A stretch of DNA of 32,000 nt from Halalkalibacterium halodurans (lineage in GTDB: Bacteria; Bacillota; Bacilli; Bacillales; Bacillaceae_D): positions 1 through 32,000 of the forward strand of contig NZ_SNUY01000005.1 of the NCBI RefSeq assembly GCF_004376175.1, given 5' to 3'. This document shows, in pieces, positions 22,451-30,846 of this stretch. Under the pieces are notes generated by a model. It was not told the origin of the DNA and searched no databases. It worked only from the letters and a program-made list of their open reading frames with translations. Positions within the stretch are counted from its first letter, which is position 1. Every line of letters begins with the position of its first letter. A program made the position numbers and the translations under genes.

Positions 22451-23497
22451 TTACCTTTGAATAATCCTTCCACCGGCAGCTTTTTCTAGCCGATTCATGA
22501 TCGCCACCCCTATGCCTTCTCGAGGAAACGTTTCGCCTATTATGACATCCACCTTTTGTTCATCAAATTGGCGGAGCACGTGATATAAATTGTGCGCCAC
22601 CTCTGCTAGATCGTTCCTACTACCGACCGAGAGGATGACATCGGCATCGTAATCTTGTTTGTGTTCATCCGTTGCCATAATCCCCACTTTGAATTGCTTT
22701 TCTCGCCACTTATCCACAAACGTTTGAATCGCCGCTTGATTTTCAACAAGGGTCAATTCCCCTTCTGGTGCATAATGGGTATATTTCATGCCTGGAGATT
22801 TTGGTTGCTCGTCCTTCCCTAAAAGGGCTGGATCGATTCGAATCGGCCCGAGTACCGCTTCTAGCTGCTCCCTAGTCACCCCGCCTGGGCGATACAATAT
22901 CGGCGGTGTCGTCGTACAATCAATCACAGTCGATTCCACCCCTTCTGCTGTCGGTCCTCCATCGACAACACCCGCGATTTTGCCTCGTAAATCAGCAAGA
23001 ACATGAGTGGCTGACGTCGGACTCGGCTTACCTGATCGGTTTGCACTCGGCGCAGCGATTGGTACATTTGCGGCTTCAATAAGCGCTTGTGCAACAGGAT
23101 GACTCGGCATTCGAACTGCAACCGTGTCGAGTCCAGCTGTAACAACGGTTGATACTTCCTCTCCTTTCGGGAATATGATCGTCAGCGGACCCGGCCAAAA
23201 AGCATTAATCAACAGATTGGCCGAATCGGGGATATGCGAAACTAAACGTAGCAACTGTTCTTTCCTTGAAATGTGGACAATAAGTGGATTATCGCTCGGA
23301 CGCCCTTTCGCTATGAAGATTTTCTGTACCGCTTCATCAGACAAAGCATTCGCCCCTAGTCCATAAACGGTCTCTGTTGGTAAAGCCACAAGCTCACCTT
23401 TTTTTATCCACAACGCTGCTTCCTTGATTTCGTTACTGTTTTTATTGATATGTTGATTATTATCCACAATCCAGTGGTTCGTCTGTTTATAACTCAT
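22451..23497 (-). CDS. tsaC: L-threonylcarbamoyladenylate synthase (Sua5/YwlC type)
   Basis: 348 aa. YrdC-domain motifs LPTETVYGLGANA and KGRPSDNPLIVHI, plus a C-terminal Sua5 domain. Confidence 0.92.
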   Translation of the reverse strand: MSYKQTNHWIVDNNQHINKNSNEIKEAALWIKKGELVALPTETVYGLGANALSDEAVQKIFIAKGRPSDNPLIVHISRKEQLLRLVSHIPDSANLLINAFWPGPLTIIFPKGEEVSTVVTAGLDTVAVRMPSHPVAQALIEAANVPIAAPSANRSGKPSPTSATHVLADLRGKIAGVVDGGPTAEGVESTVIDCTTTPPILYRPGGVTREQLEAVLGPIRIDPALLGKDEQPKSPGMKYTHYAPEGELTLVENQAAIQTFVDKWREKQFKVGIMATDEHKQDYDADVILSVGSRNDLAEVAHNLYHVLRQFDEQKVDVIIGETFPREGIGVAIMNRLEKAAGGRIIQR

Positions 23498-23644
23498 CTT
23501 TTTTTCACTCCTATCCTTCCATTTTGCGTTTTCCCCTGCCCATTGTCAATGAAGAGAATTTCTGCAGCGATCACCTTGTTTTCATTCTATTTTTTTCACA
23601 ACAAAAAGATAGTTATCCACCCTATGTGAACAAACTGTGGATAA
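22710..23644. promoter_or_regulatory. DnaA-box cluster (four perfect TTATCCACA boxes plus near-consensus boxes)
   Basis: Perfect 9-mers lie on the plus strand at 22710-22718, 23404-23412 and 23460-23468, and on the minus strand at 23636-23644. An 8/9 box TTATCCACC lies at 23613-23621. The last two form the arms of the inverted repeat AGTTATCCAC/GTGGATAACT. Confidence 0.75.
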
Positions 23645-23672
23645 CTACCTCGATTTTACTTTCGTCTATTAG

Positions 23673-24110
23673 TTATAATTGGCATGAGAAGACAGCAATC
23701 TCTTTTGCAGCTGTTTGGCGGAAATGGCTTGAGGTTTTAATCGATTCAGGCAATTGATCTTGGTCCATTTGCTTAAATCCTAGGATCGCAAAGAGCTCAC
23801 TTGCTTGCTTCGCGCAAAGATATACAGTCTCTACACCTTTTTCCTTCGCATGGGCAAGAGCAACTTGGAGAAATTCCAGACTCCTATAGCTTGTCCAATT
23901 GGGAGCGTCAATGACGAGCGATCGAAGCAGCCCTTCCTTTCCGAAACACTCCACCCCTACCGTGCCAATTACTTGGTGATTCTCGTTCTCTACGACGAGA
24001 AAATCCTTGAGATGATCTTCCATCGCCCCTTCTTGCAATCCTGCTTTTGCGAGCAGACGCTGAATCGGTAGCAAGTCTTTTTCCGATGCTTTGCGAATCA
24101 CAAAACTCAC
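23673..24110 (-). CDS. ywlB: GNAT-family N-acetyltransferase (YwlB-like)
   Basis: About 145 aa. Acetyl-CoA-binding-like core LLRSLVID...RSLEFLQVALAHAKEKGVETVYL. Start uncertain: GTG at 24110 has the best SD spacing (AAGGG + 8 nt), while the track uses GTG at 24119. Position between spoIIR and tsaC. Confidence 0.75.
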   Translation of the reverse strand: MSFVIRKASEKDLLPIQRLLAKAGLQEGAMEDHLKDFLVVENENHQVIGTVGVECFGKEGLLRSLVIDAPNWTSYRSLEFLQVALAHAKEKGVETVYLCAKQASELFAILGFKQMDQDQLPESIKTSSHFRQTAAKEIAVFSCQL

Positions 24111-24164
24111 CGGCAACACCCTTTCTCTAGCCTATTGCTACCATTCTATGTGATAAAGGGATAA

Positions 24165-30507: not shown

Positions 30508-30753
30508 TTACTTAAGGTTGTATTTTTTCTTAAAGCGGTCAACACGGCCACCAGCGTCAGCAAGTTTTTGCTTGCCAGTGTAGAATGGGTGAGAGTCAGA
30601 GCTAATCTCGACTTTGATTAATGGATAAGTGTTTCCATCTTCCCACTCAATGGTTTCGTTTGACGTTTTCGTCGAACCGCTTAGAAATTTAAAACCTGTG
30701 CTCGTATCCATAAATACAACTTTCTTGTAATCTGGATGGATTCCTGGTTTCAT
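30508..30753 (-). CDS. rpmE: 50S ribosomal protein L31, type B (Cys-less)
   Basis: Start trimmed to ATG at 30753 ([28 protein letters not shown]...[12 protein letters not shown]...[13 protein letters not shown]), giving 81 aa. It contains no cysteine. SD AAAGGAG upstream. Confidence 0.9.
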
Positions 30754-30817
30754 CCTTTTCAACTCCTTTATGCCCTGATTCTTTCGAAACAGAGTTTTCT
30801 CAATCACACATGACGAA

Positions 30818-30846
30818 ATTATATCAAGCCTGCGAAGGGATTGCAA
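30818..30846 (-). promoter_or_regulatory. Sigma-A promoter for rpmE
   Basis: Minus strand reads TTGCAA (30841-30846), 17 nt spacer, TATAAT (30818-30823), in the rho-rpmE spacer. Confidence 0.7.

Follow-up and report, generated by a model that had tools for sequence, protein, structure and literature searches.

A DnaA-box cluster between ywlB and tsaC of Halalkalibacterium halodurans that reaches into the tsaC coding sequence

What accounts for four perfect DnaA boxes lying within 935 bp in and upstream of the gene tsaC (ywlC) of Halalkalibacterium halodurans? Such a group could be a product of chance, a by-product of the protein that the gene encodes, or a set of binding sites maintained as DNA, and it raises the further question of what DnaA would do at this locus. 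Herein, "the window" denotes the whole stretch of DNA that was analysed, 32,000 bp in length.

The locus has a precedent in Bacillus subtilis, where six DnaA-box clusters are known outside oriC, one of them being ywlC-ywlB (PMC3245932, PMC2533591); a sequence-only reading of the window had described these clusters correctly. Ishikawa 2007 reported eight stable DnaA sites in B. subtilis, of which one lies between ywlB and ywlC and is bound in vivo, and found that over-produced DnaA represses ywlC, a DnaA-regulated gene in this species (PMC2533591). DnaA-dependent repression of ywlC is the established role of this B. subtilis cluster, DBC[ywlC-ywlB] (PMC2533591). In vitro, ATP-DnaA binds the B. 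subtilis ywlB-ywlC region with an apparent Kd of 0.25 uM, and 9 sites are predicted there within 300 bp (Smith & Grossman 2015, PMC4447404). In a 2025 paper PywlC-lacZ, which covers the stretch from -240 to +73 of the ORF, served as a read-out of repression by DnaA, and the fusion responded to the DnaA level. Table 3 of Ishikawa 2007 marks ywlC-ywlB of B. halodurans as conserved, with an index A (see below) >= 0.3 (PMC2533591). Since the species is listed there, the cluster is not a discovery; it has been known as a computational prediction since 2007. What is new is the position of two of its sites within the first 32 codons of tsaC, and their conservation at the DNA level.

Anatomy of the cluster

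The window carries rho, rpmE (with an L31 leader), tdk, prfA, prmC, spoIIR, a ywlB-like gene, tsaC, mntP, ywlE, an MCP gene, rpiB, ywlG, glyA, upp, a subtilase gene, the atp operon, ywmB, murAA and spoIID. This order is syntenic with B. subtilis, and the gene order of the B. subtilis ywl region is identical. The product of tsaC contains the Pfam domains Sua5_yciO_yrdC and Sua5_C and is 54% identical to B. subtilis YwlC, while the ywlB-like product is 29% identical to YwlB over its full length. Together with the gene order and a box array homologous to those of 22 other Bacillaceae loci (see below), these flanking orthologs bear out the earlier proposal of a positional ortholog of DBC[ywlC-ywlB].

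A direct search of the 32-kb window for TTATCCACA returned the four perfect boxes already noted in the sequence-only reading, and no perfect box beyond these four (Table 1). We used 100 dinucleotide-preserving shuffles of the window as a null for perfect boxes. The shuffled window held 0.25 perfect boxes on average and 2 at most, close to the earlier estimate of ~0.24, so that the Poisson probability of at least 4 is ~1.3e-4. The chance that 4 random points all fall inside 935 of 32000 bp is ~1e-4. When one mismatch was allowed, 17 boxes were found in the window versus 7.85 expected, with 6 of the 17 inside the interval. Chance or base composition as the origin of the cluster was thus ruled out by the shuffles.

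The density and affinity of the boxes were scored with the published Ishikawa index, A = density x affinity with a threshold of 0.3, which was re-implemented here. On the B. subtilis locus (L085) the re-implemented index gave d = 7.0, an affinity sum of 8 and A = 1.14, equal to the published values. In B. subtilis, A exceeds 0.3 at exactly the eight sites bound in vivo (Ishikawa 2007, PMC2533591). We defined a cluster as at least four closely spaced boxes, each with at most one mismatch to TTATNCACA, with A > 0.3. In the window such a cluster is present, with A = 1.05 at 23592-23644, and the next-best value in the 32 kb outside it was below 0.05. It lies between the orthologs of ywlB and ywlC (tsaC) in the conserved prfA...glyA neighbourhood, which is the location of DBC[ywlC-ywlB].

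Upstream of the gene, the sequence-only reading had described two intergenic boxes as the arms of a 10-bp inverted repeat. Both boxes, including the 8/9 box TTATCCACC, and the repeat itself were recovered; the arms are AGTTATCCAC (23611-23620) and GTGGATAACT (23637-23646), 16 nt apart, and the repeat widens to a 21-nt imperfect palindrome with 81% complementarity (23607-23650). The description was incomplete, as it had overlooked box B between the two, along with the weak boxes at 23592 and 23484. Since the degenerate box B stands between boxes A and C, the "inverted repeat" is a three-box array with a spacing of 11-12 bp. The weak box at 23592 is the fourth of the array and brings it to its index of 1.05. 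Box A is the first of a three-box array kept in Halalkalibacter, Alkalihalophilus and H. ligniniphilum, and a middle box occupies the position of box B in relatives too, for example TTGTCCACA in two of them (L086 and L087). The box-like TTATAAACA at 23484 could be a weak DnaA box or could reflect a constraint on translation initiation.

Table 1. Genes, DnaA boxes and predicted promoter at the ywlB-tsaC locus (positions in the window)
Feature	Position	Strand	Sequence or codons	Remarks
tsaC (ywlC)	22451..23497	-		L-threonylcarbamoyladenylate synthase, Sua5 type; TIGR00057 211 bits (cutoff 123)
Perfect box	22710..22718	+	TTATCCACA; codons 260-263, TTT GTG GAT AAG = F V D K	Doubtful member
Near-box	23272..23280	-	TTGTCCACA (8/9); codons 73-76	Invariant I-V-H-I motif; doubtful cluster member
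Coding DnaA box G, perfect	23404..23412	+	TTATCCACA; codons 29-32, TTG TGG ATA AAA = L W I K	+102..+110 from predicted start
Coding DnaA box F, perfect	23460..23468	+	TTATCCACA, TGTGGATAA on coding strand; codons 10-13, ATT GTG GAT AAT = I V D N	+46..+54 from predicted start
Box-like sequence	23484..23492	-	TTATAAACA; codons 2-5 (S-Y-K-Q)	DNA-level invariant in alkaliphile clade
Predicted sigma-A promoter of tsaC	23521..23549	-	TTGACA-17 nt-CAAAAT	10/12 consensus matches
Weak box	23592..23600	+	TTTTTCACA, 1 mismatch to TTATNCACA	Uncertain as real site
Intergenic DnaA box C	23613..23621	+	TTATCCACC (8/9)	Opposed to tsaC; 10-bp inverted repeat with box A
Intergenic DnaA box B	23625..23633	-	TTGTTCACA, 1 mismatch to TTATNCACA	11 bp start-to-start from box A
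Intergenic DnaA box A, perfect	23636..23644	-	TTATCCACA	tsaC orientation; about -130..-122 from predicted start
ywlB ortholog	23673..24119	-		148 aa, GNAT-like; upstream neighbour of tsaC; cluster boundary

Within the gene, two boxes had been placed at the 5' end with a possible third, as "two to three" in the N-terminal coding sequence. Two of them, at 23460 and 23404, do lie there, but the box at 22710 belongs to the 3' third of tsaC, within the C-terminal Sua5 domain, and the perfect box closest to it is 686 bp away. Four other H. halodurans assemblies also have this box intact, but it is absent from all other loci of the alkaliphile clade, and three favourable synonymous choices suffice to make a box of F-V-D-K. 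It is a species-specific and possibly fortuitous site. The near-box at 23272 also occurs in some Clostridia and archaea, so the amino-acid motif I-V-H-I can produce a near-box. A protein-driven origin is likely for the box at 23272, and possible for the one at 22710. Box-like sequences were also found in excess in the rest of tsaC in Bacillaceae (45 observed versus 12.4 expected); in the window alone there were 2 versus 0.91, which is not significant.

GC skew is negative throughout the 32-kb window, which places the window in one replichore, with the minus strand as the leading strand and the genes co-oriented with replication. A replication origin (oriC) at the cluster was rejected, as the window contains neither dnaA nor dnaN and its GC skew does not switch. 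The surroundings of the boxes are coding or promoter sequence. In assembly GCA_034259345.1, the gene for an identical TsaC protein lies 3.92 Mb into a contig of 4.27 Mb.

Conservation across Bacillaceae and codon choice within tsaC

The comparison set comprised at least 80 tsaC loci from a genome collection and 9 from named species, anchored on the invariant PTETVYG motif. The genome-collection loci listed, among which B. subtilis was absent, were mostly those of Clostridia and archaea, which served as an outgroup; the B. subtilis locus was retrieved with a YwlC query sequence that is 99% identical to a database entry. Multiple boxes were present at all of the other Bacillaceae loci (22/22), and A exceeded 0.3 at 19 of the 22. 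Between -500 and +950 of PTETVYG, the number of boxes that differ at no more than one position was 4-11 at Bacillaceae loci, and 7-11 if a single locus is set aside; some clusters lay a little further upstream than this range. Among the ~60 non-Bacillaceae loci listed (Clostridia, archaea, Paenibacillus and others), there were 0-2 boxes and A did not exceed 0.05. The cluster is thus conserved at the same locus in relatives and, among the loci listed, absent outside the family.

The alkaliphile clade (8 loci: the window, Halalkalibacter, H. ligniniphilum, Alkalihalophilus, B. solitudinis, Shouchella and Marinococcus) shares the layout of the window, with an upstream intergenic array of two to five boxes; in several of its genera the intergenic trio consists of two direct boxes and one inverted box. 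On the coding strand, TGTGGATAA occurs at -88 (V11-D12-N/K13) in 8/8 loci of this clade, and a second TGTGGATAA at -32 (residues 29-32) is perfect in seven and deviates at one position in the remaining locus. In B. subtilis, B. safensis, B. cereus, Aeribacillus and others, the intergenic boxes number four to six and stop 3 nt short of TTGTTT, which resembles a -35 element; the coding boxes are at -69 (L-S-T = TTATCCACA), -58 (Y-P-Q = TTATCCACA), and -88 and -76 (V-D-K/N). The positions of coding boxes turn over among clades (-88, -76, -69, -58, -32), and of 23 loci, 20 had at least two coding boxes. Pontibacillus retains the cluster despite an intervening gene between cluster and tsaC.

The sequence-only reading had suggested that the boxes constrain codon choice. 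Alignment of tsaC 5' ends from related Bacillaceae showed boxes conserved beyond what the protein requires, and the effect was stronger than claimed. In a codon alignment of 20 Bacillaceae tsaC genes, there were 88 invariant residues with synonymous codons. Only two of these used a single codon in 20/20 genes, V11 (GTG) and D12 (GAT), and these two form the core of box F. Other invariant Val columns used three or four codons, the commonest in 7-8 of the 20 genes. We then resampled the N-terminal 31-39 codons of 23 genes synonymously, with each gene's own codon usage. The observed number of perfect N-terminal boxes was 30, compared with 3.9 expected; with one mismatch allowed, 45 were observed and 19.6 expected. 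Kinship among the sequences makes simple probabilities inexact, but the control columns within the same gene, which share its phylogeny, show no such effect.

Box G presents the same picture at the level of both codon and residue. In the alkaliphile clade I31 is encoded by ATA in 8/8 genes, while ATA accounts for 14% of Ile codons there. The box is retained despite residue changes, as ATG TGG ATA ACG (M-W-I-T) and CTG TGG ATA AGT (L-W-I-S), and the L-L of other Bacillaceae is replaced by W30-I31 exactly at the box. A purely protein-driven origin of boxes F and G was rejected by the codon tests, and a known RNA element as the cause of conservation was sought in the tsaC leader and 5' coding region, with none found at Rfam gathering thresholds. 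The coding boxes F and G are maintained by selection on DNA, not on protein.

A broader reading, which we hold to be somewhat favoured by these data, is that in Bacillaceae TsaC the N-terminal ~35 residues serve two uses, their conserved motifs being translated DnaA boxes under selection on DNA. V-D-K/N would then be TGTGGATAA, L-S-T and Y-P-Q would be TTATCCACA, and L-W-I-K would again be TGTGGATAA. The boxes would shift codon, reading frame and orientation by clade while at least two stay downstream of the promoter, and in the alkaliphile clade the protein itself would have been altered (L-L to W-I), creating a box. If true, this would be an unusually clear bacterial example in which the operator of a transcription factor has shaped the sequence of a protein while a whole family diverged. 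No description of family-wide codon-level conservation and turnover of coding boxes in tsaC was found in the literature searched. The PywlC reporter of the Grossman laboratory, which reaches to +73, suggests that the B. subtilis coding sites were at least tacitly known.

The tsaC promoter and the predicted effect of DnaA

The intergenic boxes and the coding boxes flank the predicted sigma-A promoter of tsaC, which ends 24 nt from the start codon. Six alkaliphile genera (the clade minus Shouchella and Marinococcus) align here without gaps, and among them TTGACA is invariant, as are A/A/A/T of the -10 element. Counted from the predicted start, close to position 23514 of the minus strand, boxes A-C occupy -99..-130 and boxes F and G lie within +46..+110. 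The intergenic boxes of H. halodurans stand ~50 bp upstream of the -35 element, whereas those of B. subtilis, B. cereus and Aeribacillus abut it. With this gap simple occlusion of the -35 element does not apply, and we infer the sign of the regulation. Inspection of the window by eye revealed no more distant promoter directly next to the boxes, such as B. subtilis and B. cereus have. No terminator was found in the intergenic stretch between ywlB and tsaC, so read-through transcription from upstream is possible.

The explanation that we consider highly probable, by analogy with B. subtilis, is that this is a conserved DnaA-box cluster around the tsaC promoter and that the predicted binding of DnaA would lower tsaC transcription. 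DnaA, preferentially in its ATP form, would bind boxes A-C cooperatively at their spacing of 11-12 bp, and also boxes F and G, so that the two groups would bracket the predicted promoter. An increase in active DnaA, such as may follow a disturbance of replication, would fill the boxes on either side of the promoter, and less tsaC would be transcribed. Repression may proceed via promoter occlusion or looping, via a polymerase roadblock at the coding boxes, or through a combination of these. The cluster would incidentally hold several DnaA molecules on the left replichore, probably near the origin, with little control of initiation by this cluster alone; a contribution from titration of DnaA is possible and, by the B. 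subtilis data, would be small. Since the geometry of boxes and promoter is unlike that of B. subtilis, the weakest step is the direction in which tsaC would be regulated in H. halodurans, and how strongly.

Should the cluster mainly control initiation, through datA-like titration or inactivation of DnaA near oriC, regulation of tsaC would be incidental. Deletion of all six non-origin clusters of B. subtilis leads to over-initiation, with a 1.37-fold ori/ter, and the clusters are generally origin-proximal (Okumura et al. 2011/2012, PMC3245932). The orthologous loci in complete genomes are found on the left replichore near the origin, ~0.2 Mb (A. pseudofirmus) and ~0.27 Mb (B. cereus) from the record end, the skew of the window is negative throughout, and Pontibacillus keeps its cluster though another gene separates it from tsaC. 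However, single deletion of DBC[ywlC-ywlB] left a relative ori/ter of 1.01, and its re-insertion near oriC (353 degrees) in the six-fold mutant gave 1.28 versus 1.37, which is little rescue; the clusters that did rescue were yydA-yycS (0.92) and ywcI-vpr (1.16) (PMC3245932). DBC[ywlC-ywlB] thus neither causes nor rescues over-initiation. Of the earlier statement that such clusters bind DnaA and modulate initiation, binding holds in B. subtilis, but the initiation role was overstated for this member. In 20 genera boxes are placed precisely at the 5' end of tsaC, both around it and within it, which also points to a promoter-linked role, and we regard a main role in initiation as unlikely. A different sign of regulation, with DnaA activating tsaC in H. 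halodurans, is suggested by the strong boxes well upstream of the -35 element, at -99..-130, as at sda, whose expression requires DnaA boxes upstream of its promoter (PMC2533591). Against this, two perfect boxes lie downstream of the start, at positions typical of repression, and B. subtilis ywlC is repressed; activation is decidedly improbable.

The coding boxes might be by-products of the protein motifs V-D-N/K and L-W-I-K, so that only the intergenic pair matters, or the cluster might be chance. [I/V]-D does stand at the same position in non-Bacillaceae Sua5 proteins, the amino-acid sequence by itself leads one to expect ~1 box per N-terminus when one mismatch is allowed, and the boxes at 22710 and 23272 fit such an origin. 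These points are outweighed by the fixed codons of V11 and D12, alone among the 88 invariant residues, by an 8-fold excess of perfect boxes over synonymous resampling, by a rare ATA fixed throughout the alkaliphile clade in a box that outlasts residue changes, and by W30-I31 standing in place of L-L exactly where the box arises, while the probability of the cluster under chance was put below 1e-4 (the individual estimates being ~1e-4 and ~1.3e-4). We hold this account to be very unlikely. The imperfect palindrome could also be the operator of a different dimeric regulator, given the complementarity of its arms. Yet the conserved portion of both arms is exactly the DnaA box, relatives retain the boxes and lose the extended palindrome, the 9-mer recurs within the coding region, and there is no Rfam element at the site, which leaves this possibility extremely small.

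As to significance, no new type of element is involved. The analysis independently confirms that an alkaliphile, and Bacillaceae at large, have conserved a secondary DnaA site characterised in B. subtilis, and this conservation supports a coupling of t6A modification (tsaC) to DnaA activity as an old, selected trait. The codon result extends the operator into coding sequence, which suggests that the cluster as defined in published work, and as deleted there, is "intergenic" and does not cover the whole site. Synonymous changes at the GTG and GAT of codons 11-12, and at the TTG and ATA of codons 29 and 31, would separate the function of the DNA from that of the protein.

Comparison with known DnaA-box clusters

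The cluster most resembles DBC[ywlC-ywlB] of B. subtilis. Both have the same two orthologous flanking genes, lie on the same side of the replichore, and contain multiple boxes of the TTATNCACA type with similar indices (1.05 here and 1.14 in B. subtilis), and in both species the boxes reach into the first ~35 codons of tsaC. They differ in detail. H. halodurans has three to four intergenic boxes set back from the -35 element, while B. subtilis has five that abut it and one in the 5' UTR. The predicted promoter of H. halodurans is proximal to the start codon, unlike that of B. subtilis. The coding boxes of B. subtilis are TTATCCACA at codons 14-16 (L-S-T) and TGATCCACA at codons 17-20 (N-D-P-Q); those of H. 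halodurans use other codons (V-D-N and L-W-I-K) and have the opposite orientation. The cluster here is predicted from sequence, whereas DBC[ywlC-ywlB] is backed by binding and expression experiments.

As in dnaA autoregulation and at sda, yydA and trmE, a box cluster lies beside a sigma-A promoter, an arrangement in which transcription is set by DnaA activity. Unlike in those cases, the target here is a gene for t6A tRNA modification and the operator is partly inside the coding sequence. With E. coli datA, a locus relatively near the origin, it shares a group of high-affinity DnaA boxes located outside oriC, and it too is probably not far from the origin. However, datA acts through IHF-dependent hydrolysis of DnaA-ATP, whereas the cluster here is not known to require an IHF-type factor. 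Moreover, datA has a measurable effect on initiation, an effect that DBC[ywlC-ywlB] alone does not have in B. subtilis.

Clusters lying apart from tsaC

The DnaA-box cluster of Pontibacillus marinus and that of Virgibacillus indicus occupy the 3' end of ywlB, the upstream neighbor gene, and tsaC lies 480–760 nt downstream. Neither of these two tsaC genes carries the V-D coding box, that is, the DnaA box on the V11-D12 codons. In Pontibacillus, the cluster is separated from tsaC by a 167-aa ORF on the opposite strand, so the cluster is retained even without coupling to the tsaC promoter.

Features of the window and clusters of the Pontibacillus and Virgibacillus loci (A, Ishikawa density-times-affinity index, cluster threshold 0.3)
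Feature	Position	Strand	Remarks
Box-like TTATAAACA	23484-23492	minus	tsaC codons 2-5; 1 mismatch to TTATNCACA
DnaA-box cluster, Pontibacillus marinus	L015:2237-2350		A = 1.17
DnaA-box cluster, Virgibacillus indicus	L017:2369-2525		A = 1.02
Two overlapping 1-mismatch DnaA boxes, ATATCCACA and ATATTCACA	18320-18336	plus	5' part of glyA
Methyl-accepting chemotaxis protein gene, 436 aa	19865-21175	minus	between ywlE and rpiB
L31-Firmicutes ribosomal-protein leader	30763-30794	minus	RF03156, 34 bits, at gathering threshold; upstream of rpmE

Box-like sequences within tsaC and elsewhere in the window

Codons 2-5 of tsaC read AGT TAT AAA CA, with all synonymous positions invariant in the eight genes of the alkaliphile clade (8/8); the box-like sequence there could be an additional weak DnaA box or could reflect a translation-initiation constraint. 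Past codon 40, tsaC of 23 Bacillaceae loci held 45 box-like 9-mers (at most one mismatch to the DnaA box), while 12.4 were expected from synonymous resampling. Examples lie at +100, +137 and +249/252 from the invariant PTETVYG motif; at the last of these, several genera have perfect boxes and the window has none. The box pair in glyA is isolated, and its score is far under the cluster threshold.

The chemotaxis gene shares 23 nt with the 3' end of ywlE. It is inserted likewise in A. pseudofirmus, H. akibai and Aeribacillus, and is absent between ywlE and rpiB in B. subtilis, B. solitudinis and Shouchella. A mechanically called 112-aa ORF (30508..30846) overlaps the L31-Firmicutes leader and is probably an over-call.

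Non-origin clusters and tRNA-modification genes

tRNA-modification genes adjoin three of the six non-origin DnaA clusters of B. subtilis: ywlC, gcp and trmE-gidA. Two of them, ywlC (tsaC) and gcp (tsaD), belong to the t6A pathway, whose function was still unknown when the B. subtilis clusters were first mapped (PMC2533591, PMC4447404).
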